Positions 7,178-33,218 of a DNA stretch of 64,000 nucleotides are shown here, piece by piece (within the stretch, counting starts at the first letter, position 1; every line of letters starts with the position of its first letter). The notes beneath the pieces were generated by a model. The model saw nothing but the letters and a program-made list of their open reading frames with translations. It searched no databases and was not told the origin of the DNA. Source of the DNA: a virus; IMG/VR virus record IMGVR_UViG_3300017991_000003, positions 64,001-128,000 of that record; one strand, written 5' to 3'. The position numbers and the translations under genes are program-made.

Positions 7178-8539
7178 TCAGCCCGAGAAGGGGTCGCCGG
7201 CCAAGGGGTCCTGCCCCTCAGCCGGCTCCTTACCGTCACCGGCCTGCTGAGCCCCCGCATCCGGGAGATCCTGGAGCGCGCCCAGGGCCGATCCCGACGT
7301 CTGAACCGGCTGAGTCGCCGGAGCTTGCGTCACTTCGGGCTGGGCCGGCGGGGCAAGGGGCCCTCCAAGAGGAGGAGCGGCGGGGGCAGCGGGCGCGGGG
7401 GCTGCGGCAGGTGCGGAGCCGGGAAAGGGCAGGCCGCCACCCTGCGGGGCCGGCTGCGGCGCCGGGGCCTGCTGCGGGAAGAGGCCGCTACCCTGCGCCG
7501 GCTGCTGGAACAGCGGGGTCGGAGCAGGCTGAGGCTGAGCACCGGATTGCTGCATCGGCTGCTGCATCGGCTGCTGCATCGGCTGCTGCATCGGCTGAGG
7601 CGCCGCCCCGGCCGGCGGCATTTGACCATAACCCGCGCCGCCGGGGACCGTGCCGGTTGCTTGGGAGCCAGGACAGATCTGATCCATGACCCCCGCGTTG
7701 TAGGAGAGGCCTCGAACACCCGGGTGCTCGTCGCAGATCTGCCGGTGCAGACGCAGGATTTCACGAGCCTCCGCCTCGGAGTAGGCCGGGTAGATCTTGT
7801 TGAAGTCCACCGAGCCGGCCAGAGCCGCGAAGTCGCCCTCAGGGTTGGGGGCCATGTAGGCCGCTAGGGCTGTGACTAGCTCCTCGGTCGTGCCGAACGT
7901 CTGTCCCTGGTTCTCGCCCAAGTAGTACATCGGCATCCAGTTACCCAGCTTCGGGGCCTGCTTCTCGTGGGTGCGGTTCACGTTCCACACCGAGCCAAGG
8001 ATCGAGCGGTTCTTCATCTGACTGAAGGCCAGGAACTGATCGAGCATGGACTGGTTAGAGAACATGACCCAGCGGATGCTCCACGGGATCGTCTGCTGCT
8101 GCTTGTTGACCCAAGGGGTCATGTTGAGGACGGCCGCGGCCATTCCCAGCATCGGTTTCGGCTTACCGAGAGCGGGTCCGAACAGGTCCGGCTGACCGTT
8201 CTCGACCGGGTTACCCGCGTTATCGACGCCGGTGATGTGGGCAGCACGAACGATCTCCCACGTGGGGAAGCTAGCGTTCGGCGTGTTTTTCCACCCAGTA
8301 GCCACCCGGTAGTGCGGGATGAGGGTGACGTCGGAAAGGAAGGCGACCTGGATCTGCTGGCCGCGGGGCGCGAAGAACTCGCGATGAGGCTTGCGCTCGT
8401 CCCAGGTCTTGGACCACGGTCCGCTGCCGGCACCGATGGAGACGTTCTCGTTCTGGGCGATGGCCTGGTACTGCTGAAGGCCGCCCTGGGCTTGACCGCC
8501 TTGAGCGAAGGGGGTCGCGGGGTTCGTGGGGTCTGTCAT
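7178..8539 (-). CDS. hypothetical protein with Gln/Pro/Ala-rich low-complexity C-terminus
   Basis: 453-aa ORF between polymerase and primase; tail contains (QQPM)n encoded by a tandem 12-bp repeat. Confidence 0.6.
   Translation of the reverse strand: MTDPTNPATPFAQGGQAQGGLQQYQAIAQNENVSIGAGSGPWSKTWDERKPHREFFAPRGQQIQVAFLSDVTLIPHYRVATGWKNTPNASFPTWEIVRAAHITGVDNAGNPVENGQPDLFGPALGKPKPMLGMAAAVLNMTPWVNKQQQTIPWSIRWVMFSNQSMLDQFLAFSQMKNRSILGSVWNVNRTHEKQAPKLGNWMPMYYLGENQGQTFGTTEELVTALAAYMAPNPEGDFAALAGSVDFNKIYPAYSEAEAREILRLHRQICDEHPGVRGLSYNAGVMDQICPGSQATGTVPGGAGYGQMPPAGAAPQPMQQPMQQPMQQPMQQSGAQPQPAPTPLFQQPAQGSGLFPQQAPAPQPAPQGGGLPFPGSAPAAAPAPAAPAAPPLGGPLAPPAQPEVTQAPATQPVQTSGSALGALQDLPDAGAQQAGDGKEPAEGQDPLAGDPFSG
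7549..7596. repeat. tandem 12-bp repeat (about 4 copies of tgcatcggctgc)
   Basis: Direct tandem repetition read in the sequence inside CDS 7178..8539; in-frame. Confidence 0.8.
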
Positions 8540-9632: not shown

Positions 9633-12600
9633 ATGGCCGATAACGTCCAGCTCTACGACGCGCATCTAAACCTCTGGACCCTCAGGACATCCGAGGACAC
9701 AGAAATCCACACGCCGCACCACGTGTCGCGGCTGGCGGACGGGGAGGGGCGCTTCTACAGGCCCGGACGGCCGGTACCTGTGTCGATCTACGGGACGGAC
9801 GGGGTCGAGATCAACATCGAGGCCGGCTCGATCGCTGTCAGCACAGACCACAACGAGGACTCAGTAGCGGTCTTCGGGTCGTCGACCCCTGAGGGGCTGG
9901 AAAACTTCAGGTCGCTGGTGGTGGACCCCCAGGGGCACCTCCAGACCACAGTGGTCTCAGCGCCTGGGGTGGAGCCCGTCGGGGACTCGCCCGACGCGGG
10001 GCAGCTAGGTACGGTCATCCTAGGGGTCCAGGTAGGGGCAACGCCAGCTAGTCAGGTCACGGGGGACGGTCGGACAGCCCCTCTGATCATGGACGATCGG
10101 GGCCGGCTCTTCGTCTCTTTCGGCAACTCCGTCGCGGTTCTGCCCTTCACGCAAAAGGGTGACCTACTTACTTATGACGGATCTGACGAAGTTGTCCTGG
10201 GCCCGACGGTCGACGACGCGCTTCTGACACTGGACTCCAGTACCAGTACCGGCCTCAGGTGGGTGAGCCCGGTGACGAGCTCCCCCAGCCCCGTGCTCTT
10301 CCTACGCGAGGATCTAACATGGGCTCTGCCCTCAGCAGGGGCACCGGGCGGGGCTGCGGGCGGAGACTTGGGCGGGACCTATCCGAACCCGTCTGTGGTC
10401 GCTATCCAAGGGATTTCCACTTCTGCGGCTGCGCCAACGCCTGGGCAGACCTGGGTGTACACCGGCAGCGCTTGGAGTCCGGGAAGCCCGGCTACCGGAG
10501 CTGCTACGGACCACGGGACGCTCACAGGGCTCCTCGACGATGATCACACCCAGTACATCCTGGCTGATGGCTCTCGAGACTTCTCAGGCTCAATCGGCAT
10601 GGGTGGGAATGAGATCACGGATGTGGCCTCTCCTATCCTCGTATCCTGGGCAGCTAACAAGGGTTACGTTGATGATCAGATCACCGCGTCCGTCATCACG
10701 GACCACGGCGGGCTAGGCGGGCTCGGGGATGACGACCATACCCAGTACGTGTTGGTGGCTGGCACTCGTGCGTTCACGGGCGATCAGAGCCTAGGCGGTA
10801 ACAAGATCACGAGTCTGGGGTCCCCGACCACCGCAAGCGATGGAGCCAACAAAGGTTACGTCGACGCTAACGTGGTCACGGACCACGGCGCTTTGATCGG
10901 GCTGGGGGATGATGACCACACCCAGTACATCCTGACTGCGGGGACTCGAGCCTTCAGTGGTAACCAGAGCCTAGGCGGCAACCTGATCACAAGCCTAGGC
11001 TCGCCTACTACCGCAAGTGGTGGTGCTAACAAGGGTTACGTTGACGCGGCTATCACGTCGGCAGTGATCACGGATCACGGAGGGCTTGGCGGCCTGACGG
11101 ACGACGACCATACGCAGTACGTCCTGGTCGCAGGTACTCGAGCGTTCACAGGCAGCCAGAGCCTGGGCGGTAACCTGATCACGTCGCTAGGGTCTCCTAC
11201 TGTTGTAAGTGACGCAGCTAACAAAGGTTACGTTGATGCGCAGATCCCGACGAGCCTACCCCCTAGCGGGGCTGCTAGTGGTGATCTAGGCGGCACGTAC
11301 CCCGGGCCTACTGTGGTGGCCATTCAAGGCACCGGAGTCAGTGCAAACGCTCCAAGTACTGGTGATGGCCTGGTTTACACCGGAGCGGCTTGGAGTCCGA
11401 CCGCGGTCTATCGACCTGGCGGGACGGATGTGGCTGTGGCAGACGGGGGCACCGGGGCGTCGGACGCGTCCACGGCGCGTAGCAATCTAGGCCTGACCAT
11501 CGGGCTCGACGTCCAAGCCCACTCCGCAGTTCTTGACGCTACAACGGCCAGTTACACAACCGCGGCCGAGGGTAAGCTCTCGGGCATCGAGACCAACGCT
11601 GATGTCACGGACACAGCCAACGTGACGGCCGCTGGCGCTGTCATGATCGGCACAACGGCCGCGGCCGGGGACCTGAGCGGTACCTACCCGAGCCCGACGG
11701 TCGTGGCCATTCAGGGGACTGGCGTCTCGAGCACTGCGCCGAGCTCTGGGCAGGCCCTGATCTACTCCGGCACTGTCTGGAGCCCCAGCACGCTCCCCAG
11801 CGGGGTGACGGACCACGGGGCCCTGACCGGACTCGGAGACGACGACCATACCCAGTACATCCTGGTTGGTGGCACTCGCGCCTTCACGGGCAACCAGTCG
11901 ATGGGCGGCAACCTGCTCACGTCGTTGGGGAGCCCGGTGGCGGTAACAGACGCAGCTAACAAGGGTTACGTCAATGCCTCGATCACCGCGGCCGTCGTCA
12001 CGGACCACGGGGCCCTTGACGGGCTGGCCGATGACGACCACACCCAGTACCACAACGACGCTCGGGCGCTGACGTGGTTGGGGACGCGCGACACAGATGA
12101 CCTGGACCCGAGCGCCACCCGTCTCTACATGAGCCCGGGTGAGCGCACCAAGCTCGCCGGGATCGAAGCGCTTGCCGATGTGACCGATGCGGCCAACGTG
12201 GCCGCGGCCGGCGCTGTCATGGTCGGTGACGCTGCGGGCGGTGATCTTAGCGGTACCTACGCAAACCCGTCCGTGGTCGCGATCCAGGGTACGGGTTGCT
12301 CTTCAGCAACGCCGACCGCCGGCCAGACCTGGGTCTACTCCGGGTCCCAGTGGAGTCCTGGCTCACCCGCTGTTGGTGGCGCGTCAGATCACGGAACCCT
12401 GACCGGGCTGGGCGACGACGACCACACTCAGTACATTCTTGTTGACGGTACACGGGCCTTCACAGGCGCAGTTAGTCTCGGTGGGAGCCAGATCAACAGC
12501 CTGGCTTCGCCCACGCTCCCAGCAGATGCAGCCAACAAGGGCTACGTCGACGACCAGATCCCGACGAGTCTACCCCCTAGCGGGGCAGCGTCTGGCGACC

Positions 12601-13409
12601 TTGGTGGGACCTACCCGGGCCCAGACGTGGTGGCTATCCAGGGGACCGCGGTCAACTCGGCGACGCCGACGACGGGTGAGGCCCTGCTCTACTCGGGAAC
12701 GCAGTGGAGCCCTGGGCCGATCAACTTCCTCGAGCTCAACGACGTCGATCCCACAGGCCTGACCAACCTCGACCTGTTCTACTACAGCTCGGCGTCGGGG
12801 ACTATCGTCCGGTCTAGCGGCCTCACGACCTACGCGTTCTACACGCACAGCGGATCGCACATCCACGGACAGTACGACGCAATCGACGGGGATCAGCTAT
12901 CGATCACCCAGCCGGGCGTCAACTACTCCCCGACGACCGACGCGACATACGGCACCAACACGGCGCACCTCGCTGCCCATCTGCGGGGTATCGGTCTGGT
13001 CCTGGAGGATGTCAGTCCCGCGGTCACCAAGCTCGCCGGGATCGAGGCGGGCGCTGAAGCCAACGACGTTCAGACCAAGAGCATCACGATCGAGGCGCCG
13101 ACCACGACGGAAGACATCTCGTTCTTCTACGCTCCGGTAGCGATGACGATCTCAGAGATGGTCACGGTCCTGGTGGGCTCTCCTACGCCGTCCCTAGCGT
13201 GGACGCTCCGGCACAGCACCGACAGGAGCGCTGTGGGCAACGAGGTCATCACCGGGGGATCCACGGCGAATAGTACGACGACCGGTAACGTGCTGACCTC
13301 CTTCAACGACGCAACGGTCCCAGCCAACTCCTTCCTGTGGGTTGAAACGGCGAGCCCCAGCACGAACGTGACGAGCTTCCAGCTCAGCGTTGAGTACACC
13401 GACGACTGA
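9633..13409 (+). CDS. tail fibre protein, repeat-rich
   Basis: 1258 aa; about 7 copies of a ~60-aa unit (TDHGxLxGLxDDDHTQYxL...GGNxITSLGSP...ANKGYVD) resembling phage tail-fibre repeats, plus 5 copies of GDLGGTYPxPxVVAIQG; GGGAGG SD before ATG. Confidence 0.85.
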   Translation: MADNVQLYDAHLNLWTLRTSEDTEIHTPHHVSRLADGEGRFYRPGRPVPVSIYGTDGVEINIEAGSIAVSTDHNEDSVAVFGSSTPEGLENFRSLVVDPQGHLQTTVVSAPGVEPVGDSPDAGQLGTVILGVQVGATPASQVTGDGRTAPLIMDDRGRLFVSFGNSVAVLPFTQKGDLLTYDGSDEVVLGPTVDDALLTLDSSTSTGLRWVSPVTSSPSPVLFLREDLTWALPSAGAPGGAAGGDLGGTYPNPSVVAIQGISTSAAAPTPGQTWVYTGSAWSPGSPATGAATDHGTLTGLLDDDHTQYILADGSRDFSGSIGMGGNEITDVASPILVSWAANKGYVDDQITASVITDHGGLGGLGDDDHTQYVLVAGTRAFTGDQSLGGNKITSLGSPTTASDGANKGYVDANVVTDHGALIGLGDDDHTQYILTAGTRAFSGNQSLGGNLITSLGSPTTASGGANKGYVDAAITSAVITDHGGLGGLTDDDHTQYVLVAGTRAFTGSQSLGGNLITSLGSPTVVSDAANKGYVDAQIPTSLPPSGAASGDLGGTYPGPTVVAIQGTGVSANAPSTGDGLVYTGAAWSPTAVYRPGGTDVAVADGGTGASDASTARSNLGLTIGLDVQAHSAVLDATTASYTTAAEGKLSGIETNADVTDTANVTAAGAVMIGTTAAAGDLSGTYPSPTVVAIQGTGVSSTAPSSGQALIYSGTVWSPSTLPSGVTDHGALTGLGDDDHTQYILVGGTRAFTGNQSMGGNLLTSLGSPVAVTDAANKGYVNASITAAVVTDHGALDGLADDDHTQYHNDARALTWLGTRDTDDLDPSATRLYMSPGERTKLAGIEALADVTDAANVAAAGAVMVGDAAGGDLSGTYANPSVVAIQGTGCSSATPTAGQTWVYSGSQWSPGSPAVGGASDHGTLTGLGDDDHTQYILVDGTRAFTGAVSLGGSQINSLASPTLPADAANKGYVDDQIPTSLPPSGAASGDLGGTYPGPDVVAIQGTAVNSATPTTGEALLYSGTQWSPGPINFLELNDVDPTGLTNLDLFYYSSASGTIVRSSGLTTYAFYTHSGSHIHGQYDAIDGDQLSITQPGVNYSPTTDATYGTNTAHLAAHLRGIGLVLEDVSPAVTKLAGIEAGAEANDVQTKSITIEAPTTTEDISFFYAPVAMTISEMVTVLVGSPTPSLAWTLRHSTDRSAVGNEVITGGSTANSTTTGNVLTSFNDATVPANSFLWVETASPSTNVTSFQLSVEYTDD
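10506..12560 (+). repeat. intragenic array of ~180-bp diverged repeats in the tail fibre gene
   Basis: Repeated DDDHTQY / ANKGYVD units seen in the translation and DNA. Confidence 0.75.
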
Positions 13410-23563: not shown

Positions 23564-24193
23564 CTAGCCGTCCGTCGTTACCCAGGTGGTCGTCCAGTTA
23601 CCAGCTCCGGCGTCCGGCCCTGTGTAGGTCACCTGCATCACCTGGTCCGTCGTGAGGTCGACCCTCTGCACGTTTGGTTGCGGCTGGGGCCGGGGCTCCT
23701 CGTAGGTGAAGCGGCTCCAGAACTGATCCTCGTCGATAGCCTTCAGCTCGTTTGAGCGCCGGCGGATATCGACCGTACCTGGAGCTAGCTTGAATAGTGA
23801 GACGTGGAAAGTGCCTAGGAGCTCTGTCGCATTGGCCTCTTGGAGTTGCTCGTGACCGTCCAGGTGCCGGAACGGGTACCACCTGTCCGTGACGCCCTGC
23901 ATCCTGCCTCCGATGTCCGAGAAGTGCGGGTAGTCTCGCATGCACGCATTGAAGATACGCTTCCACCATCGGGAGGAGTAGAGCGGATTGGTGCGAGCTC
24001 CGATATCTCGGCCCCTGAGGTGCTCTTCAATGTGTTGGAGGACCCTGAAGACGACAGCGCGGTGATCGCGATCCGTCGGGCCTCGAGAGCGCAGGGTGCG
24101 GAGCGGGAACGTGGCTACGTGAATGCTCTGCTCCTGGAGGTGGCGGGTGTTCGTGATGTGGAGGACCTGGATAGGGCGGGGCCGGCGACTCAT
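23564..24193 (-). CDS. hypothetical protein
   Basis: Track ORF 23564..24298 trimmed to ATG 24193 (MSRRPRPIQ...), overlapping upstream stop (ATGA). Confidence 0.5.
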   Translation of the reverse strand: MSRRPRPIQVLHITNTRHLQEQSIHVATFPLRTLRSRGPTDRDHRAVVFRVLQHIEEHLRGRDIGARTNPLYSSRWWKRIFNACMRDYPHFSDIGGRMQGVTDRWYPFRHLDGHEQLQEANATELLGTFHVSLFKLAPGTVDIRRRSNELKAIDEDQFWSRFTYEEPRPQPQPNVQRVDLTTDQVMQVTYTGPDAGAGNWTTTWVTTDG

Positions 24194-24900
24194 GGCTTGG
24201 TCAGGGTCAGGATGGTGATCATGTAAGGCGTGCGCAGGAGTAGGTACTTGTCCTGGACTGCCCATAGCACGGGGCTCTTGCCTAGGAGGATCAGGCACTG
24301 GCGGAGCTTGGTGACGTTGACGGCCGGGTAACGGCGCTCACCCGAGATGGGGTACTCAGTCGGCTCGGCTCGAAGACCCTGCTGTGGGCAGATCTCCATG
24401 AACTGGTAGTTCAGGGCTGACTGATGTGCTCGCGATTGCGGGATGACACCCAGCGGGTCTCCGGTCACGCGCTTGAAGGCTGCGGAACGAGCAGCCAGTT
24501 GCTGCATCAGATCTGCGTGCGGGTAGTCAGGGCCGGCCTTCACTGGCGCAGCCCTCGGGGTGTCGAGCTGCGTGCTGCTGTAGATCGTGGTGACGGTCAT
24601 GTTGCAGACCATTCGATCTAGCGGCCAGTCCTCGACCCAGGTCAGCTCTTTGGTGATCGAGGGGTGCAGTTGGTAGAGCAGGCGGCCTCGACCGCGTGCT
24701 AGGTAAGGGCGCTTCCACGCAGCCAACCGGTGCGAGCCTTCGACCCGTTGAGGTGTTTGGTACTCCGCAAAGGGGCCGGCCGGTTCTGTCGGTTCTGCGG
24801 CTTTTCGAGGCTGCTCCAGGTGGGTCAGCAGGGTAAGGACTCGCGCCTGATCACCCGCGCTCAGGGCCTCGATACGCTCAGCGATGGTCTTGTCGGTCAC
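24190..24900 (-). CDS. hypothetical protein
   Basis: Track ORF 24190..25041 trimmed to GTG 24900 (VTDKTIAERIEAL...) preceded by AAGGAG about 7 nt upstream. Confidence 0.5.
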   Translation of the reverse strand: MTDKTIAERIEALSAGDQARVLTLLTHLEQPRKAAEPTEPAGPFAEYQTPQRVEGSHRLAAWKRPYLARGRGRLLYQLHPSITKELTWVEDWPLDRMVCNMTVTTIYSSTQLDTPRAAPVKAGPDYPHADLMQQLAARSAAFKRVTGDPLGVIPQSRAHQSALNYQFMEICPQQGLRAEPTEYPISGERRYPAVNVTKLRQCLILLGKSPVLWAVQDKYLLLRTPYMITILTLTKP

Positions 24901-25128
24901 TAAAAAGCTCCTTGGTGAATCAACCGGAGCAGAGCTCCGGAGGTGAAAGGTGCCCCACCCGCCGAGAGGCGAGTGGGGCGGTTGCCAGGATGCACACGAA
25001 CTACTGGAGTGGTGGACCTGAGCTGAGCCGGAGTATGGCACCGGATCGAGCCGGATTCAGTGACTGCGTATAGCTCGTTGGGTTTGTCTACCTCGTGGAT
25101 GAGCTCGGAGTCACGACTCGAGCGGAGT

Positions 25129-25290
25129 CGCCTGCCTCGAGCTCATTGTTGCCATCATCTCGTCTGGTTGATGAGATGGCGGCGGCTCCTCCTCTCCTGT
25201 TATCCTGCGCTTACAGTATTCTCGGTGCCCGAGCTCGACCCATCTCGTCAACCTGACGCGATGATGGCAACAATGAGCTCGAGGCAGGCG
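25129..25290. repeat. 36-bp inverted repeat (35/36 matching) with ~90-bp spacer
   Basis: Left arm 25129-25164 cgcctgcctcgagctcattgttgccatcatctcgtc; right arm 25255-25290 is its reverse complement with one mismatch. Confidence 0.85.
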
Positions 25291-25440
25291 CCGCAGCGAG
25301 AGGCGCCGTGGCTCAGCCTCGTGGTGGGCAAACCCACGAGTTATTCGCAGACACTGAAGCCGGCCCGGTTGACATGCTCTGGCTCAGCTCAGGGTCTACC
25401 CGTAGGTGCAAGTGTGGCCGAGGTTGCTGTTGCGCTATCT

Positions 25441-25455
25441 GCGGCGATGCGCCGC
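25441..25455. repeat. short inverted-repeat motif GCGGCGATGCGCCGC, copy 1 of 3
   Basis: CGGCG-ATG-CGCCG core read directly; recurs at 25787 and 26040. Confidence 0.8.
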
Positions 25456-25786
25456 AGGACCCTCAAGTCAAGAGGGAATAGCTCTTCGTGTGCGGGGATT
25501 CCAAGGCAAGAGCCTGGATGGGCGCGCAGAGCATGATCCCGGTCGTGGAGGCGTGCCCGAGCTTTGTACGCGACCCGGTTCGGGTCGAGGATAAAGCGAA
25601 GGACCAGCACGCTGTAACGATCCGTGGATTATGCTCCGCGCTGTCCCAGCCAGCGCTTCGTTGGTAGTGGGAGGCGCCTCCGCTAGGAGGCGACGTCCTC
25701 GAGTTGCGCTACTGAAGCGACCACACATGCTGGCATGTGTAGCTTCAGGTGCGCAGTGCTCGAGGCCCACGACCAGTCGTACAGTG

Positions 25787-25801
25787 GCGGCGATGCGCCG
25801 C
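25787..25801. repeat. short inverted-repeat motif GCGGCGATGCGCCGC, copy 2 of 3
   Basis: Identical 15-mer to copy 1; flanks extend the inverted repeat to 17 bp. Confidence 0.8.
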
Positions 25802-26039
25802 CTGAAGACGTTGTGGATTAGGCCTCCGGTAGGCCCGTTCCAGTCTTTCTACTCCCTTGGAAAGGTAGTCACCTCTTGCGAGGCTGGCTGGCTACCTTGG
25901 TATCGGCGCTCGTAGAGACTACCCGGTCACACGCCCGCCGGAGGCGGGCTTGTGGACGCGTGGTCTCAACGTAATGTGTCACAGGAGACAGCTCGAGGCG
26001 CAGCTCGAGCGGGCCTCCGGCCACAGTTTCTATCACTTG

Positions 26040-26054
26040 ACGGCGATGCGCCGC
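26040..26054. repeat. short inverted-repeat motif (a)CGGCGATGCGCCGC, copy 3 of 3
   Basis: 13-bp core identical to copies 1 and 2; spacing between copies about 345 and 250 bp. Confidence 0.75.
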
Positions 26055-26265
26055 CGCGGAAGTCAGATGGGCTAGCTAGACCACTTCTTTCCTTGCTCCG
26101 CCGAAGATGTACCTGTTGGCAGCCCTGGTACTGGGCTTTTGGCTATGAAGAACGGATCATCGGGGCCAACTACCCTCCTGCTCTTCGTGCCTGTTGGTAC
26201 CGGCCTTTGGCCGGCAGCCGAGCCTGCTCCGGATTATGTGGAGCAGACTCGGTTCACTTGGTGCG

Positions 26266-26733
26266 CTAGCCGCGCTCCTTGACGGGGACCTTCATGATGA
26301 GGACGTCGCCCTCCTTGAGGGTCATCCCGTCGGTCACCTCCTGGCCGCCGATGTGCGGCTTCGACCCCTCGGGGGTGCCGAAGCGGCGAGCGTACTCGGT
26401 CCGCGCGTCGGCGACCGAGGTGCCGGCGGCGACGTTGAGGCGGCCGGGCTCGCCCAGACCGTCGGTGGCCGCGGCGGTGACCGTGGCGACCGGACCCGCC
26501 TGCGGGGTCTCCTGGGTCGTCGGCGCCGTCGTGGCGGTGGGAGCGGTGCGCGTCACGGCGACGGCCACCTCGGTGTCCGTGGGCAGACCCGTGGTCTGGT
26601 CCCACTTGGTCGGATCCGAGTGGTCGACCTCGTAGAGCACGGGGTTGCCGGCCGCGTCGTTCGCGGGGGAGTCGGCGTAGCGGATGCGACGGTTGAGGGT
26701 GTCGAACGCGGGGCGCTTGATGTTTCCGGTCAT
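26266..26733 (-). CDS. small protein with candidate ThiS/MoaD-like beta-grasp (ubiquitin-like) C-terminal domain
   Basis: 155 aa; C-terminal ...IGGQEVTDGMTLKEGDVLIMKVPVKERG resembles ThiS/MoaD but ends RG, not GG; last gene of the RT-JAB-E1 operon. Confidence 0.4.
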   Translation of the reverse strand: MTGNIKRPAFDTLNRRIRYADSPANDAAGNPVLYEVDHSDPTKWDQTTGLPTDTEVAVAVTRTAPTATTAPTTQETPQAGPVATVTAAATDGLGEPGRLNVAAGTSVADARTEYARRFGTPEGSKPHIGGQEVTDGMTLKEGDVLIMKVPVKERG

Positions 26734-26756
26734 GGTGCAGAGGGTGTGTAGAGGGT

Positions 26757-27491
26757 TCAGGTGAGTTGGAGGGAGTGCTGCGTCTGCGGCGCGGCTTTCC
26801 CACCGAGCACGTCGACCACGATGGTGTTGAAGCTGGGCTTCATCGGGTCGTCGATCGTCAGGACCTGGGCGAACCAGGTCTGCAACATGGCCTGGGCGAC
26901 CGCTTGGTTCGCCAGAGCCAGTTGCGGCTGCGTCTCGTACTCCTGGGTGCAGTCCAGCTGATCGGGAAACTCGTTCCCAGGAGTCTCATGACGCATCTCG
27001 GGGTTCCGTTCGGTGAGCGACGCGCAGACGTCCTCGCTGTTGATGCGGCGCCAGAGCATGGCCTGGCCGCTGTCGAGGTCGTTGCCGCCGTCCACCCACG
27101 TGAACTCGTCGAGCTTGTCGAGCTGCTCCTCGAGGAAGCAGCGGGTCTTGTTGTTGTCCACGCAGCCGAACAGCGTGACGCCCTCGACCAACCACTCACG
27201 GTGGTGGTTCAGGAGCCGATCGCTCAGGTACATGGAGATCACCCGGACGTCCAGGCCCGGGAAGGTGTCTCGCAGGGTTCGGGCCATGATCTCGGCTTTG
27301 TTCTGGCCGATGGCCGCGGCGCCGTGCTGGCGCGCGAGGTTGTGGTCCTCGACCTCGTCGCCGTCGATGATGAAGAGGGTCGGATTCTGGATCCGATCCC
27401 CCACCATCTCAGGCGGGTGGGCGAGAAGACGAGCGAGCGGCTCGGCTAGGTGGTAGCCGATGCCGCCCGCTCCGAGGATGGCGTAGATCAT
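26757..27491 (-). CDS. E1-like enzyme (ThiF/MoeB/ubiquitin-activating family)
   Basis: Track ORF trimmed to ATG 27491 (MIYAILGAGGIGYHLAEP...); GxGxxG loop and E1 signature FIIDGDEVEDHNLARQ; collinear with ThiF/MoeB; starts 5 nt after the JAB gene stop. Confidence 0.8.
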   Translation of the reverse strand: MIYAILGAGGIGYHLAEPLARLLAHPPEMVGDRIQNPTLFIIDGDEVEDHNLARQHGAAAIGQNKAEIMARTLRDTFPGLDVRVISMYLSDRLLNHHREWLVEGVTLFGCVDNNKTRCFLEEQLDKLDEFTWVDGGNDLDSGQAMLWRRINSEDVCASLTERNPEMRHETPGNEFPDQLDCTQEYETQPQLALANQAVAQAMLQTWFAQVLTIDDPMKPSFNTIVVDVLGGKAAPQTQHSLQLT

Positions 27492-27495
27492 GAGG

Positions 27496-29394
27496 TCAGG
27501 GGTAGATGGGGAGGGTGGCTTCTGTTTCGGACTTGTTGCAGAAGGCGATCTCCTCGAGGAGGACATCGTCTTCCATGTCGTCGGGGTCCTCGAGGACTCC
27601 GTCCATCTCGAGCACCAGTCGATCCATCTGATCGAGGATCTCTTGGTAGTCCTTGCGGTAGGGAATGCCGGCGTTCTGGGCCGCCTTGCGGACGACAAAG
27701 TAGGTCAGCCGGAACCACTCGAGCAGGACGCCGTCGGAGTCCTCTCGCGAGAATGCCTCGACGTAGCTCAGGTTGGTCTCGATCACGGTCTCGATCACGG
27801 TGTCGATCGACGTCTCGGGGAACACAGTTTTCACCGTCGGGTCGGCGTAGACGTATTTCGAGAGCTTGTCGATCCGGGCATCCAGTGCGATCGACTTGAA
27901 TAGCCGGTCGAGAAGGTCGTCGATGCGATTCATCACCTCGTCGATGACGTCTCGAACCAGCATGCTGTAGAGGGTCTGACGACTCTCGGATGCGCTGTTC
28001 TGCGCTTCTTCGACGATCTCTTCGATCGTGGGGGCGTTATCGAACCACTCACTGGTCGAGGCGTGGTTCATGAGCAGATGCAGGGCTAGGGCCGTAGCGT
28101 TGCTCGACGTCAGACTGTCCTTGAACGAGGTGCAGTACGCCCACACGGCTCGTGGGAAGGTCGTTTGCTGACCCTCCGCCTTCTTGATCAGCTGAAGGGG
28201 GTAGTGCGCTTGCGGTGAGATCACCATGCCGTAGAAGCCGGTGTGCATCCGCTGGATGCGGAACTTCTTATCAGCGACCAGCGAAGGGCCAGAGGCTGTC
28301 TTGCTGACAGGTACCAGTGAGGTAGTCGTCTTCTTCGTCGTCTGGCCAAGGCCACCCTGCGCCCCCGTACCCCCAGTCTTGCCGCCAGGAGTCGAAGGCG
28401 TACCCGCTTTGCCGCCGGTCCACTTTTTCGAGCCATAGCCGCCATACCTGCTGGTCTTGGCTTTCTTCTCCGCCTCCTTGATGGCCTCGCTGGCCAACTT
28501 GAACGTGGTAAGACAACGGGCGGCCTCGCCCATCCTGTCCTTCCAACGCCCCAGGCTTTCCATCGACCCACAGAAGGTCATCACAGTGCTCGTGTCGACG
28601 TCCTCGAGCTTGTCGACGCTGAGACCGACGGCGAGCTCGTCGGGATCGACCCCGGCCTTCAGCATGGCTTCGCACAGTCCGGGGTGGGCGACCCGGTTCA
28701 GCCACAGCTGAATCAGATCCAGGCCGCCCTCCACGAAAGGGATGTCGAACAACTCCTCGAGACCGGTCGCGTGGCGGATGCCCTGCGCCTTCTCGTTGCG
28801 GTAGCCGGGGAGGGCGGTGACGAACGACGGGCACACCGAGAAGGGCGGCTTGTCCACGTTCCCGAAGGTGATGTGGAAGCCCGTCTGGTTGAGCTCGTTG
28901 GCGTCGTCGGTCGAGCTGTGGTAGGCTCCACCAGCGCCGTGACTGTGCGCGGTGCCGACGCAGATGAACTCGACAAGCTCTCCATCCTCGCAGATGGGGC
29001 AAGCGTTGCCGGCTTCGAGCTCGATCGAGCCGATGCGACAGGTCGTGCAGAAGCTCTTGACGTTGGGATCGTACTTCACGTGCCCCGCGGAGGCGGTGTA
29101 CCACGGCGGACTGACGAGGGTGTAGGCGTCGTCGACCGGCCCTCGGTGGAAGAGCACGAAGGCCTCGGTCTTCCACAGGCGGTAGACCTCGGCGAAGTAG
29201 CGGTAGACGAACATCGTCTCCGCCATGGAGATCTTGGGCCAGTTGGTGAGGTCCAGGTCACGCTGGATCTGGTCGGTTTCACCGAGGTCCTCGGCCCGGG
29301 CGGGAACGAAGGCCTGAGCCCAGGCGGCCCCGCCTGGGCCGATGGTCTTCAGCACGTGGGCTTGGTTGCCCTTGTAGTAGATGTCGGTGGTCAT
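27496..29394 (-). CDS. JAB/JAMM (MPN+) metalloprotease-domain protein with N-terminal zinc ribbon and long C-terminal extension
   Basis: Exact JAMM motif HSHGAGGAYHSSTD (HxHx7Sx2D) after CTTC...CPIC; Gly/Lys-rich linker; ATG 29394 overlaps upstream stop (ATGA). Confidence 0.7.
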   Translation of the reverse strand: MTTDIYYKGNQAHVLKTIGPGGAAWAQAFVPARAEDLGETDQIQRDLDLTNWPKISMAETMFVYRYFAEVYRLWKTEAFVLFHRGPVDDAYTLVSPPWYTASAGHVKYDPNVKSFCTTCRIGSIELEAGNACPICEDGELVEFICVGTAHSHGAGGAYHSSTDDANELNQTGFHITFGNVDKPPFSVCPSFVTALPGYRNEKAQGIRHATGLEELFDIPFVEGGLDLIQLWLNRVAHPGLCEAMLKAGVDPDELAVGLSVDKLEDVDTSTVMTFCGSMESLGRWKDRMGEAARCLTTFKLASEAIKEAEKKAKTSRYGGYGSKKWTGGKAGTPSTPGGKTGGTGAQGGLGQTTKKTTTSLVPVSKTASGPSLVADKKFRIQRMHTGFYGMVISPQAHYPLQLIKKAEGQQTTFPRAVWAYCTSFKDSLTSSNATALALHLLMNHASTSEWFDNAPTIEEIVEEAQNSASESRQTLYSMLVRDVIDEVMNRIDDLLDRLFKSIALDARIDKLSKYVYADPTVKTVFPETSIDTVIETVIETNLSYVEAFSREDSDGVLLEWFRLTYFVVRKAAQNAGIPYRKDYQEILDQMDRLVLEMDGVLEDPDDMEDDVLLEEIAFCNKSETEATLPIYP

Positions 29395-29816
29395 GTGGTG
29401 ATCAGGGGTGGGTGGAATCGACGTAGGACGGTCAAGACCGCCTGGGTGTCTTCGTTGATGTCTTGCTCGGCTAGTAGGTGATCGAGCCGGCGCATCCAAT
29501 CACGTAGGGTCGTGAGCTGCTCGGGGCCCATGCTCGCCGGAGGGTCGACGACAGGACGTCGGTCGCTCTCGTCTCGGATCAAGTTGAAGCGGATGTTGTT
29601 GATCCTTCCACCGTCTAGCGCAACTGGATAGGTGCGTTGGAAGATCTGACCAAGAGCCTCGATCATCTCTCGAGTAAGACCCGTCCCCTCAAGATCGAGA
29701 AGGTGCGGTCGGTTCTCGAGGATCCGAGATAGAAGCTCCTCGCGTCTCCGGATAATGGCCTGGTGATCATTGTGTCGATCACGCGCGCCTTGCACGGTGT
29801 CCAGAATGGTGGTCAT
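29391..29816 (-). CDS. hypothetical protein (operon member, no Cys)
   Basis: ATG 29816 (MTTILDTVQ...) overlaps stop of upstream gene (ATGA); 141 aa. Confidence 0.5.
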   Translation of the reverse strand: MTTILDTVQGARDRHNDHQAIIRRREELLSRILENRPHLLDLEGTGLTREMIEALGQIFQRTYPVALDGGRINNIRFNLIRDESDRRPVVDPPASMGPEQLTTLRDWMRRLDHLLAEQDINEDTQAVLTVLRRFHPPLITT

Positions 29817-30655
29817 CGGACCACCTCTCGCCACTTCTCGGCCGCCGTACCGAGCTCCCGGCCCAGTACGATCTCATCGACGTCCGTCTGCCAGGTCATG
29901 ATGCGATCCTCGGTCCAGCGCTGCCATCGACAGAACTGCCAGAGCATGACAGTGTTCATGTTCAGGCCCAGATCACGCCGCCTGTCGTAGTCGGTGTAGT
30001 CACCTTCGGGGAGTTGCTCGAAGTACGGGACCTCTCGAAGCGCTTCGGGAACCTCAAACCCCTCAGGGAGCGGCCCGCTGAAAGGTGGCATGGTCAGGGA
30101 GTGCTCGTAGTGCGCGTTGTAGCCGGACTCGTTGATGAGCTTGAGGACCATCTCCGGGATCGACTGGAGCCCGTTGTACCGGTACTGGCGGAACACAGCA
30201 CCCGTGCACATGCCTCCCGTATCTTGCTGGTTCGGTAGGAATGATTTGTACAGAACCGGGGTGTACCCCGCCTCCAGATGCGGCTGCTGCTTGGTGAAGA
30301 AGCAGCGGGCATCGGAGAGGCGCCCGTCGTAGATCGAGATGATGAAGACGCGCGCAGGCATGGCGACCAGGAATCGAAGACCCTCCGGCCAGCCGCGGTT
30401 CTCGCGGACGTCGATGGAGATCCTCTCAGCCCGCGGAGGCACGACTGCCATGAAGTGCTCGTTGTGGGCATCCTTGGTGTGTGCCAGGATGTTTACGTAG
30501 GGGTGGTACGGAAAGAGGGCGCCAGCGCGCCGGCCTCGTTCCTCGAGGGCGGTCACGACGTCTTCTTCCCGCGTGATGCGGTTGACGTGAACCGTTTGAT
30601 GGATCACGTGACCATCGACGATGACGAGTCGATCGTGGGTTTCGAAGTTGGTCAT
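29813..30655 (-). CDS. hypothetical protein translationally coupled to the reverse transcriptase (candidate accessory/effector)
   Basis: 280 aa; ATG at 30655 overlaps RT stop at 30652 (ATGA); no recognised motif. Confidence 0.55.
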   Translation of the reverse strand: MTNFETHDRLVIVDGHVIHQTVHVNRITREEDVVTALEERGRRAGALFPYHPYVNILAHTKDAHNEHFMAVVPPRAERISIDVRENRGWPEGLRFLVAMPARVFIISIYDGRLSDARCFFTKQQPHLEAGYTPVLYKSFLPNQQDTGGMCTGAVFRQYRYNGLQSIPEMVLKLINESGYNAHYEHSLTMPPFSGPLPEGFEVPEALREVPYFEQLPEGDYTDYDRRRDLGLNMNTVMLWQFCRWQRWTEDRIMTWQTDVDEIVLGRELGTAAEKWREVVR

Positions 30656-31755
30656 GGGAGGTACGCGCGTGTCTCGGCGCTGTAGTTGGTGGGGGTGTTG
30701 TGGTGCACGTCTTGCGCGACACGCAGTTGTAGTTGGAGCGAGGCTCCTTGATCAGGGTTGATGAAGTTGACGTGGTTGACGAGGCCGGCGAGGTGGTCAA
30801 AGTTCACCGGCACAGGGCCTCGGTGCGTCAGCTCTCCCCCACGGGGACAGCGGCCGAAGTGCGCGTCGCAGATGATCTTGTGCAGCCGGGCGCGAAGCGC
30901 GCGCCGTCGAGGCCTGGGAGCGCTTAGCTTCTCGTTGACGACGACGCCGCAGACCGTCATGCGACTGCCGATGGAGCGGAATCGGATCTTTTCGGGGGCG
31001 ACCTTGTAGCCCAGCTTTTTCAGGAACCCGATGACGGGGTACTGGAACTGGTACAGCTTTCTGTAATCCGCCGTGAAGGTCATGTCGTCGCTATAGCGGG
31101 TGTACGCGATCGGCAGGAGTCTGATCTGAGTCTGCGTCTTTCGCCGGCGCTCTCCGTGGTTGTCGACCCACCGCATCGTGGGGTTGGTCCGCCAGGACTC
31201 GATCAGCTTCAGGATGCCGAAGTCCACCTGAGCCCCTGCCAGGTTGGAGAGGAAGGGGGACGTGGGGGCTCCTTGTGGTAGGCCACCATCCAAGAAGCAG
31301 GCGCGTTTGACTCTGTCAAGGAAGAGCCTGTCGGCACGTGACATCGGTTGCATGTACCCCCTGGTCAGGAAGTACTCCAGCTGCTCGAGGACGACGTGGG
31401 GAGACACGGACGGGAAGAAGTCCCGCAGATCGATGTCCAGCTTGTACCGGTGACCTACATGCGGGGCGGCGTTGGTGTGGATACCACGCTTGCGGACGTA
31501 GGCATGAGCTGCTGGGGAGGCCCCGATCCCGAGCGCTTTGAGCTCGCTGAGGATGAGCTTTTGAGCAGCCATTAGCTCCGGGCAAGGGATCTGGAGCTTT
31601 CGCATCTTCTGACGTGTCCGACCGTTCGAAAGCGTCTCGAGTACCGGGACTTCTCGACCATCCCGGGTACGCCTGGTCTTGGGGATTCGTGCGAATCGGT
31701 AGTGCTCAGCTTGAGCGGTGTCCGTCAGGACATTGAATGATGGGTAGCCAGCCAT
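30652..31755 (-). CDS. reverse transcriptase, retron-type
   Basis: 367 aa; RT motifs: HTNAAPHVGHRYKLDIDLRDFFPSV (NAxxH + motif 2), LPQGAPTSPFLSNL (QGxxxSP), YTRYSDDMTF (YxDD), TVCGVVVN (VTG-like); GAGGGT SD before ATG 31755. Confidence 0.85.
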   Translation of the reverse strand: MAGYPSFNVLTDTAQAEHYRFARIPKTRRTRDGREVPVLETLSNGRTRQKMRKLQIPCPELMAAQKLILSELKALGIGASPAAHAYVRKRGIHTNAAPHVGHRYKLDIDLRDFFPSVSPHVVLEQLEYFLTRGYMQPMSRADRLFLDRVKRACFLDGGLPQGAPTSPFLSNLAGAQVDFGILKLIESWRTNPTMRWVDNHGERRRKTQTQIRLLPIAYTRYSDDMTFTADYRKLYQFQYPVIGFLKKLGYKVAPEKIRFRSIGSRMTVCGVVVNEKLSAPRPRRRALRARLHKIICDAHFGRCPRGGELTHRGPVPVNFDHLAGLVNHVNFINPDQGASLQLQLRVAQDVHHNTPTNYSAETRAYLP

Positions 31756-31811
31756 GATCTACCCTCAGATGACGGCGCAGATTGCGCTCAAGGCAAGAAG
31801 TAGCATGTGCT

Positions 31812-32414
31812 TCACTCCGTGGTTTGAGGAAGTAGCGGGAGGTCCGCCTGGTGAAAGGCCTGGAAGATCGCCGAGGCGACGGTCTTCAGACGGCTTTCGA
31901 AGATCAGGTGGTCCGGGTGAGACATCTCCCCAGCGGGCGGGAGCTCTTTGAACAGCCGGTCGATGATGGCTACGAGCAGGTCGTTAGCGTCGGCCTGGCT
32001 GACCAGGAGGCTCCGGGGGCGGAGGTTGATGTTCAGATTGGAGGCTATGCCCCGTAGCACCGGTGGACGGGACCGGGCCGCGTGGACGGCGAAGGCGATT
32101 GAGGCTAGCCGGTGGTTGTTGTCGGCCGCAGACGGTGTGGTGGTGGCGGGGTTGTGCTTGCGGAGCGGGTCCGTGTCGGGGACCGGGTCGGGCAGCACCA
32201 GGGGACCTACGCCGTTTTTGGCCAATCGGTGGTAAAGGCTTAGAGCTGCCAAAGCCCCGAGTCCCATAGCCGGCAGCAATGCGCGGTTGGAGACTCGAGC
32301 GGGGCGTGGTGCGTCGACTGAGTCGGTCGACCACCAGGCGGACAGCCCTTCACGAACGGGCCCTTCATAGAGGGGCCACGTCTTCGTCAAGGCATCAATG
32401 ACGGGGACGTACAT
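31812..32414 (-). CDS. hypothetical protein (uncertain; region may instead be non-coding leader of the RT operon)
   Basis: 200-aa ORF with no Shine-Dalgarno before its ATG. Confidence 0.3.
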   Translation of the reverse strand: MYVPVIDALTKTWPLYEGPVREGLSAWWSTDSVDAPRPARVSNRALLPAMGLGALAALSLYHRLAKNGVGPLVLPDPVPDTDPLRKHNPATTTPSAADNNHRLASIAFAVHAARSRPPVLRGIASNLNINLRPRSLLVSQADANDLLVAIIDRLFKELPPAGEMSHPDHLIFESRLKTVASAIFQAFHQADLPLLPQTTE

Positions 32415-32549
32415 TCAGATCCGGATAGGGAGGTGGAGATGTGTTCGTGTCGGCAAACAGTGGCTCACAGGACTCATGCCATGTCTGTTAGGTCTTTTCA
32501 TGCGGGCCCCCAGGCGCTATCCTGAGCCTGTCAACAACTGGAGACGACC

Positions 32550-33218
32550 ATGTCGCAACGACCCACAGGTTCTCGCCCCGCCCCGCGCGGCTCGATGATG
32601 TCCGCTGACGCCGCTGCCGCCGACGTGCGGGCTCGGCAAGAAGCCGCAGCCCAGGAGCAGCTACAGCAGCAGGCCCAGGCGGCCAATGAGGCTCCCTCTG
32701 AGGAGCAGACCGAGCTCGACGAGGCCATCAGCTCCCAGATCCCCAAGGAGGTTCAAACCTCCCGCGGGATGCGCCCCTACGCCCAGTTCAAGAAGGAGTT
32801 CGACGAGGTCTATGAGCAGGTCCGTGACAAGGACCACCTGCTCTCTGGTCGAGTGACATACTCGACCGAGCTGGCTGGTCTTCCTATCACCATCCAGAGC
32901 CTGCGCCAACGGGACCGGCGGCTGCTGGCGGCCTGGGCCCCTGACGCCCGGGATGAGCATCGGGCATTCATGGATGGGGAGTTCCAGTACCGCTCCCGCC
33001 TGATGGTCCTGTCCCTGGTCCGGGTTGGGGATGTGGAGTTCCCGAGCCTGCCGATCAAGACGGATCCGGAATCTTGGGAGAAGCAGGACCCGATCCAGCA
33101 GGCCCTGTCCTACGTTGAAGACTGGGACGAGACCCTGTTCAACGTGATCTTCGGGCTCCTATCTGACCTCGAGACCGCCAAGCACTTCGCGCTGCTGGAG
33201 AACCTGGGAAACCCCTAG
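32550..33218 (+). CDS. hypothetical protein
   Basis: 222 aa; GGAGAC SD before ATG; Gln/Ala-rich N-terminus. Confidence 0.55.
   Translation: MSQRPTGSRPAPRGSMMSADAAAADVRARQEAAAQEQLQQQAQAANEAPSEEQTELDEAISSQIPKEVQTSRGMRPYAQFKKEFDEVYEQVRDKDHLLSGRVTYSTELAGLPITIQSLRQRDRRLLAAWAPDARDEHRAFMDGEFQYRSRLMVLSLVRVGDVEFPSLPIKTDPESWEKQDPIQQALSYVEDWDETLFNVIFGLLSDLETAKHFALLENLGNP

Follow-up and report, generated by a model that had tools for sequence, protein, structure and literature searches.

Can an E1-like adenylating enzyme encoded by a phage, next to a small protein without a Gly-Gly terminus, be part of a complete ubiquitin-like conjugation system? We addressed this question for a locus in the IMG/VR virus record IMGVR_UViG_3300017991_000003, of which positions 64,001 to 128,000 were analyzed (64,000 nucleotides; this whole stretch is called the window hereafter). 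The window is regarded as phage DNA because the proteins that it encodes include a DNA polymerase, a primase, DnaB, a lambda-O-like initiator, ThyX, a sigma factor, and a tail fiber. The two genes in question (26266-27491) are the last two of a six-gene operon on the minus strand, in which a retron-type reverse transcriptase (RT), an E2-like protein, a 141-amino-acid (aa) protein, a JAB peptidase, the E1-like enzyme, and a ubiquitin-like protein (Ubl) follow one another in this order. We consider it likely that the operon contains a complete minimal ubiquitin-like conjugation kit (E1, E2, JAB, and Ubl) of the Prok-E2_D/PRTRC/6d kind that is functionally tied to the RT. The four components of this kit are the following.

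26266..26733, minus strand: Ubl, 155 aa, ending in K152-E-R154-G155-stop (...KVPVKERG)
26757..27491, minus strand: E1-like adenylating enzyme, 244 aa, starting with MIYAILGAGGIG (Pfam ThiF, 9e-14)
27496..29394, minus strand: JAB/JAMM metallopeptidase, 632 aa from the ATG (Pfam Prok-JAB, 2.9e-5; PRTRC_A, 5.7e-4)
29813..30655, minus strand: E2-like (putative UBC-fold) protein, 280 aa, with the candidate catalytic Cys150 in LPNQQDTGGMCTG

Genes of the operon are joined by ATGA overlaps, one of them at the RT/E2 junction, and a 23-nucleotide (nt) gap separates the end of the E1 gene from the start of the 155-aa gene.

The small protein has a beta-grasp domain and an invariant terminal glycine

The 155-aa open reading frame (ORF) is a real gene, given its third-position GC of 0.95 (0.55-0.66 in the overlapping frames) and the 59% identity of its product to that of the syntenic ORF in a related phage. 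In the protein, a disordered linker joins a conserved N-terminal domain (aa 1-55) to a C-terminal beta-grasp domain (aa ~80-152, window ~26275-26496). A word-indexed search with the 155-aa sequence alone found only the sequence itself, and an alignment query built from syntenic orthologues brought together 10 family members. AlphaFold2 run on the family alignment modeled residues ~80-152 at pLDDT 83-89, with a strand-strand-helix-strand-strand topology and the last three residues as a flexible tail. When this model was compared to the PDB using Foldseek, the top 50 matches were all Ubl-type beta-grasps at probability 1.0, among them the Ddi2 UBL, SUMO1, archaeal and eukaryotic ubiquitin, MoaD, and TtuB, with a target TM of 0.53-0.69 among full-length hits. 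Furthermore, one family member matched Pfam ThiS at 0.003, and the family profile reached SAMP2 at E 0.15. The modeled fold supports the small protein as the putative ubiquitin-like partner of the E1, a role for which a preliminary description of the locus had already made it a candidate.

That description had also reported that the protein ends in ...KVPVKERG without Gly-Gly, which holds for what is now a coding ORF with a syntenic orthologue, and had concluded that adenylation was not to be expected. The family alignment argues otherwise. K152, R154, and G155 are invariant in the Ubl family, and K-x-R-G-stop ends 13 of 15 distinct sequences (KERG, KDRG, KQRG, KARG, KRRG, KNRG, and KSRG were seen before the stop). 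The two exceptions are KKG-stop in L105 and KERG-M-stop in L098 (L-numbers and P0011 are labels of the loci and contigs compared with the window). The tail is thus a single Gly rather than Gly-Gly. E1-type adenylation requires just a terminal carboxylate, usually that of Gly, and mature ATG8, ATG12, and UFM1 likewise have just one terminal Gly. Since the terminal Gly is invariant and single-Gly Ubls exist elsewhere, the missing second Gly is not evidence against adenylation. The Ubls of L005, L098, and L105 are only 76-85 aa long and consist of the beta-grasp alone, the others having the conserved N-terminal domain. In L098 (7757-7996), the one extra residue after the Gly would have to be trimmed before activation, and removal of this Met would be a natural job for the JAB peptidase.

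The operon encodes a divergent E1, a candidate E2, and a JAMM peptidase

The E1-like protein scored 51.6 bits with Pfam ThiF (cut-off 28.1) and carries GAGGIG, D43, N51/R54, K65, D112, R117, and Cys181; positions G7/G9/G10/G12, D43, N51, R54, K65, D112, R117, and C181 are invariant in 17 E1 relatives. Cys181 is the candidate thioester cysteine, located 69 residues after the Mg-binding Asp, a position that we take to fit where E1 catalytic cysteines sit. The best NCBIfam match was PRTRC ThiF (TIGR03736; 5.8e-15 over residues 4-202), with a score of 55.3 for a cut-off of 144.75. ThiF (7.6e-8), MoeB (7.8e-6), and SAMP-E1 models were all much weaker and likewise below their cut-offs, the ThiF models reaching 32.2 and 30.4 bits (cut-offs 159 and 275) and the MoeB models 25.3 and 22.5 bits (cut-offs 266 and 376). 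A search of the PDB with the family profile returned similar E-values across the superfamily, namely, for MccB (nominal top, 4e-13), TcdA, SAE2, UBA3, Uba1, Uba4, ATG7, UBA5, and Cap2 (2.6e-8), and PADLOC matched the protein only to CBASS E1-E2 (Cap2) models, at 2e-8. By these family comparisons, the enzyme is a divergent E1 and not a cofactor-biosynthesis enzyme.

The E2-like protein has a recognizable E2-type motif. Its orthologues keep P141-N142 ... G147 ... C150-x-G152 (LPNQQDTGGMCTG, LPNTYSAGEICAG, and MPNQSGDGGICLG), with N142, C150, and G152 invariant in 15 sequences that include Pfam-positive Prok-E2_D proteins. The candidate Cys lies about 7-8 residues past the Asn of the (H)PN motif, of which only the His is missing; Leu or Met takes its place, as it does in other prokaryotic E2s. 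Over 141 columns, hhalign matched the family to the Prok-E2_D protein of L091 at a probability of 91% and an E-value of 1.1e-6, with one Cys motif placed on the other. Of six orthologues, two matched Pfam Prok-E2_D (best 0.014) and one matched PRTRC_B at 0.16; the 280-aa protein of the window itself matched neither model. Motif, profile comparison, and gene position make its assignment as a Prok-E2_D-like E2 well supported, at the level of sequence.

The JAB gene lies directly upstream of the E1 gene and encodes a full JAMM motif (E ... HxH-x7-S-x2-D), whose residues E77, H150-S-H152, S160, and D163 are invariant in six orthologues, along with four invariant Cys that form a zinc-ribbon insert. 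Conservation is confined to the N-terminal ~240 aa, beyond which the chain continues as a low-complexity linker and a C-terminal region with little conservation. The protein scored 24.3 bits with Pfam Prok-JAB, just below the cut-off of 25, and 19.5 with the PRTRC_A model TIGR03735 (cut-off 101.8), and a PDB profile search with the JAB family gave nothing significant.

These results leave the preliminary description partly standing. Its compact E1-like protein of about 245 aa, the 155-aa ORF with its terminus, and a 141-aa protein devoid of cysteine were all recovered. Its statements that neither unknown ORF has an HPN/catalytic-Cys signature and that there is no obvious E2 are not borne out, given the 280-aa ORF, and the best family match of the E1, which it had likened to MoeB/ThiF in its compactness, is PRTRC ThiF. 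The JAB and the RT that heads the operon are further parts that it did not mention. As for the two grounds on which it would have abandoned a ubiquitin-like reading, the fold was modeled as a beta-grasp and the E1 is not closest to ThiF/MoeB.

A retron-type reverse transcriptase and a structured non-coding stretch flank the kit

The RT precedes the E2 gene, and 1.2 kb without a convincing ORF separates the Ubl gene from the next gene.

30652..31755, minus strand: retron-type RT, 367 aa (Pfam RVT_1, 4e-14; PADLOC retron RT models, about 1e-44)
25636..26132, minus strand: structured non-coding units downstream of the Ubl gene, candidate non-coding RNA, each ending in the hairpin GCGGCGCATCGCCGC

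The RT displays the motifs NAAPH, LPQGAPTSP, YSDD, and VCGVVVN and matched the NCBIfam retron St85 RT model at 1.8e-38, with a score of 132.5 for a cut-off of 235. RT C-termini are not conserved and lack a terminal Gly (YLP, YLKL, and KKCQ). Only 56 nt of space is present upstream of the gene, where no msr/msd fits. A diversity-generating retroelement was also considered and rejected, as no repeat is shared between the non-coding stretch and a gene anywhere in the 64-kb window and no template/variable pair was found. An Rfam search of window positions 24000-33000 returned nothing credible.

The three copies of GCGGCGCATCGCCGC (26040-26054, 25787-25801, and 25441-25455) all lie after the Ubl gene on the operon strand (minus), with no copy elsewhere in the 64 kb, and none of 100 shuffles reached that count. 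Hairpins of the same type (stem, CG-NAK-CG, stem; 5-8 bp stem) were found 70-820 nt past the Ubl stop in seven other loci (L003, L005, L007, L089, L096, L098, and L102), at 1-3 copies per locus and almost nowhere else in them. Their stems vary between loci by compensatory changes; the hairpins were picked for having a stem, and the independent evidence is therefore only their location and sequence variation. A unit of ~285 nt that lies 360 nt after the Ubl gene (25912..25636, minus strand) aligns with L003:11336-11580 and L096:8294-8580. Across these three sequences, 62 consensus pairs were counted, 17 of them with compensatory changes, including a closing stem, and the unit carries a conserved box, CCAAGGTAGCCAGCC, and several hairpins. 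A weaker second copy is located at 26028-26132, and a 115-position covariance model added no more than a single weak copy in the window and another in L089. The unit is a candidate RNA partner or template of the RT and could equally represent an origin or processing sites.

Two further observations concern the same stretch. Immediately before the next gene, giant imperfect palindromes of 320-430 nt with a self-complementarity of about 74% are present at window ~25047-25367 and L003 ~11827-12239. Their architecture, not their sequence, is kept between the two phages; an origin, a cruciform, and a long RNA or single-stranded DNA hairpin are conceivable interpretations. After the Ubl gene of L090 (11600-11880), three apparent tRNA genes were seen by eye, and ARAGORN found none in the window.

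The operon is conserved among uncultured phages, and the RT link recurs in a second lineage

The order [200 aa]-RT-E2-141 aa-JAB-E1-Ubl recurs in at least 10 divergent uncultured phages (L002-L004, L005/6, L007/8, L089, L090/L099, L096/97, L098, L101, L102, L105, and the P0011 contig). Across these loci, E1 identity ranges over 36-63% and the GC content of the locus over about 47-67%, and the operon is always placed between structural and replication genes. The RT is phage-borne and co-diverges with the phage backbone. A scan for the E1 in one genome each of 185,579 species revealed no close relative, and no near-identical DNA was found in cultured phages, where the E1 protein gave only 30-36% matches, in Bacillus jumbo phages and one fecal phage. 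The Ubl and E1 proteins are also on record in a 193-kb contig, so that the genome of the phage may be much larger than its 91.6-kb IMG/VR contig.

A second, distant phage lineage (L028:5935-11338) contains the block Prok-E2_D(3.9e-5)-JAB-ThiF-HNH-RT-SpoVG, in which the retron-type RT carries a canonical VTGIVVNN. By ORF layout, this order is shared by L048, L050, and L051, and no obvious free Ubl was found in the L028 block. Given that the second lineage carries the RT in a different order, the RT link recurs in two gene orders.

More distant relatives were observed on other elements. In the cultured Bacillus jumbo phage vB_BauM_KLEB27-3 (L125; OM634661.1 167647-169897), a PRTRC_A domain-containing protein adjoins a ThiF-family E1 that is 30% identical to the window E1, and no RT is annotated nearby; this phage is a possible experimental handle on an RT-less version. 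A mobile-element block in L091 (8637-17179) contains an E1 at 33% identity, a beta-clamp-like protein, Prok-E2_D, Rad52, an SMC-like ATPase, and a primase, and lacks an RT, which suggests that E1/E2_D kits as a rule move together with genes for replication and recombination.

Comparison with described systems

The closest described system is operon type 6d, which corresponds to the PRTRC cassette (TIGR03734-03741) and to Pfam Prok-E2_D/Prok-JAB. In type 6d, which resides on mobile elements, a JAB and an E1 are encoded together with a small Ubl that has a Gly at its C-terminus and with a helical protein that evolves fast; the E2-like protein of this type has a conserved Cys and lacks the classical His, and the published description mentions no RT (Iyer, Burroughs & Aravind 2006, PMC1779556). 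The phage operon shares with it a standalone small beta-grasp with a C-terminal Gly, a JAB that adjoins a compact rhodanese-less E1, a His-less E2 with a conserved Cys, a fast-diverging extra protein, and a mobile-element setting. The best NCBIfam hits (PRTRC_ThiF and PRTRC_A) and the Prok-E2_D matches of the E2 point the same way. However, scores of the phage operon are far below the curated cut-offs, and no PRTRC ParB homologue was matched among the 10 operon and flanking ORFs scanned. Moreover, the phage JABs (400-670 aa) contain a zinc-ribbon insert and an extended tail, and the Ubl carries a further domain at its N-terminus. A retron-type RT opens the operon, a structured non-coding stretch comes after it, and the operon was found only in uncultured phages and not in the species genomes scanned. 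What is new with respect to 6d is the addition of a retron-type RT and a structured non-coding region, and the scores for curated membership failed.

Other systems resemble the operon in part. Bil (bacterial ISG15-like) and Bub are host-encoded and anti-phage (PMC10557695, PMC11601603, and PMC11601596), whereas the operon described here is phage-encoded and RT-linked; a PADLOC search of the operon kit gave partial matches to CBASS E1-E2 as the only conjugation-type model. As in type II CBASS, where Cap2 is an E2-E1 fusion and Cap3 a JAB, E1, E2, and JAB stand beside a nucleotide-polymerizing enzyme in one operon, but the E1 and E2 are unfused, the Ubl is free, the enzyme is an RT, and neither a CD-NTase (PADLOC) nor an effector is present. 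Retrons share the RT motifs (xAxxH, LPQGxxxSP, YxDD, and VxG(I/V)VVN) and provide the strongest RT hits; in contrast to them, the phage RT is under the retron cut-offs, is phage-borne, and has no msr/msd that fits upstream. No known retron type with E1, E2, JAB, or Ubl partners was found in the literature, nor was a published description of an RT with a ThiF/JAB/ubiquitin-like module. Finally, the ThiF/ThiS and MoeB/MoaD pairs likewise combine a compact E1 of about 245 aa with a small Gly-ended beta-grasp, but the phage terminus is RG instead of GG, an E2 and a JAB are present, cofactor genes are absent, and the scores are 22-32 bits for cut-offs of 159-376.

Other genes of the operon and the window

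Two more genes keep their place in the conserved order.

29391..29816, minus strand: fast-diverging protein, 141 aa, no Cys, with ATGA overlaps on both sides
31812..32414, minus strand: conserved gene upstream of the RT, 200 aa (syntenic homologues at 41-46% identity)

The slot of the 141-aa protein between E2 and JAB is always kept, its sequence being only weakly conserved, and the protein may be the counterpart of the "alpha-helical protein" in 6d operons. The 200-aa protein had no family match in the family-library scans (including Pfam and NCBIfam), and it is uncertain that its gene is part of the system.

Repeats were observed in two distant ORFs of the window. A 1258-aa tail-fiber-like ORF (9633-13409, plus strand) contains families of 59-215-nt direct repeats at 10353-12654, spaced by 180-192 nt, which indicates a modular structure of the protein. 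A 12-nt tandem repeat, GCTGCTGCATCG in plus-strand reading, lies at 7548-7597 inside a 453-aa ORF without known function (7178-8539, minus strand) between the DNA polymerase and the primase.

A proposed cascade and the alternatives to it

In a conjugation cascade built from these parts, the E1 would adenylate the free C-terminal Gly155 of the K-x-R-G tail and then take the Ubl onto Cys181 as a thioester. The Ubl would next move to Cys150 of the E2-like protein and from there onto a lysine of a target protein. The JAMM peptidase would undo the conjugation and, for Ubls with an additional residue behind the Gly, expose that Gly. The kit is probably tied to the structured RNA encoded just downstream. 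By analogy with the control of CD-NTase by Cap2/Cap3, our best guess is that, early in infection, conjugation may regulate the RT and its cDNA product or be regulated by them.

Several points weigh against this interpretation. The E1, JAB, and E2 all score under the curated cut-offs of the PRTRC models, and the JAB and E2 under those of Pfam as well. An exhaustive search gave only four homologues of the E2, resulting in a shallow alignment and a weak, low-confidence model (pLDDT 53.5); Foldseek returned nothing significant for this model, with the E2-variant AKTIP on top at E 0.19, and PDB profile searches with the E2 family do not reach solved E2s, so that structural support for the assignment is only suggestive. 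No target, E3, or ParB was found, the structured unit is no more than a candidate for the template RNA of the RT, and conserved gene order is the only evidence that links the RT to the kit. We regard the gene set, the motifs, the beta-grasp fold, the conserved terminal Gly, and the conservation of the operon as established, and we infer all chemical steps, the target, and the RT link.

The kit and the RT might instead be independent neighbors, the kit acting alone, for example, in counter-defense or replication control. E1 and JAB pairs without an RT do occur in many viral loci and in KLEB27-3, and the plasmid- or ICE (integrative and conjugative element)-type locus L091 has Prok-E2_D and E1 with no RT. 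The ATGA overlap nevertheless couples RT and E2, the order RT-E2-x-JAB-E1-Ubl is kept down to 36% E1 identity, and an RT is linked again in the second lineage with its different gene order, which makes independence rather unlikely.

The always-present RT and structured non-coding region would also suit an adenylation that does not lead to protein conjugation, in which the K-x-R-G tail is joined to something other than lysine, such as the cDNA or RNA product of the RT or a nucleotide, in the manner of MccB. MccB is the nominal top PDB hit of the E1, though many E1s score alike. Against this stand the invariant Cys of the E2-like protein and the JAMM isopeptidase, which are standard parts of protein conjugation, and we know of no precedent for a Ubl joined to an RT nucleic-acid product or a nucleotide; we judge such chemistry improbable.

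The sulfur-carrier pathway offered as an alternative in the preliminary description fares worse. In that scheme, the E1 would adenylate the small protein for it to become a thiocarboxylate sulfur donor like ThiS, MoaD, or CysO, with the JAB acting like Mec or QbsD. It would account for a compact E1 without an E2-binding domain and for a beta-grasp that also resembles MoaD and TtuB, with its one ThiS match in Pfam, and sulfur pathways of the CysO and QbsE types do include JAB proteins. Yet neither in the operon nor among its neighbors was a rhodanese, a cysteine desulfurase, or a partner of the ThiG/ThiH/MoaE/CysM type found, and genes for the synthesis of thiamine or molybdopterin were not seen near the operon, where the neighbors are DNA polymerase, primase, DnaB, and the O-like initiator. 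The conserved E2-like protein with its invariant Cys, the better score of PRTRC ThiF over ThiF/MoeB models that remain far below their cut-offs, the extra N-terminal domain of the Ubl, and the phage replication region as a setting also speak against it. We reject a sulfur carrier, for which the chances seem very slim, because no sulfur-transfer or cofactor gene accompanies the operon and an E2 is present. Equally hard to credit is a Cap2/Cap3-like logic without a free tag, in which the C-terminus of the RT is the real substrate and the small protein an accessory: the RT does occupy the place of the CBASS CD-NTase, and PADLOC matches the E1 only to CBASS E1-E2 models, but RT C-termini are variable and none ends in Gly, the small protein has an invariant terminal Gly and a beta-grasp, and E1 and E2 are separate.

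Implications

Work on ubiquitin-like conjugation in bacteria (CBASS Cap2/Cap3, Bil, and Bub) has to date treated it as host immunity, and, to our knowledge, no function has been assigned since 2006 to the PRTRC/6d kits carried by mobile elements. Here, what is likely to be a complete 6d-type kit belongs to the conserved gene content of a phage lineage, in fixed linkage with a retron-type RT. An absent HPN His or an absent second Gly should therefore not be taken as the absence of an E2 or a Ubl. With its compact set of six genes, the operon makes it possible to ask what such cascades modify and whether the single Gly of K-x-R-G suffices for transfer by E1 and E2, and it also raises the question of the role of an RT in a lytic-type phage replication region.

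A more specific and decidedly more tentative proposal is that ubiquitin-like conjugation and reverse transcription form one machine, in which the RT would copy the RNA encoded after the Ubl gene and the Ubl would be reversibly attached to the RT, to the cDNA complex, or to host proteins, switching the system on early in infection. If true, the operon would represent the first case of a viral ubiquitin-like cascade in bacteria that is coupled to cDNA synthesis, and it would provide a functional clue to the PRTRC/6d operons.

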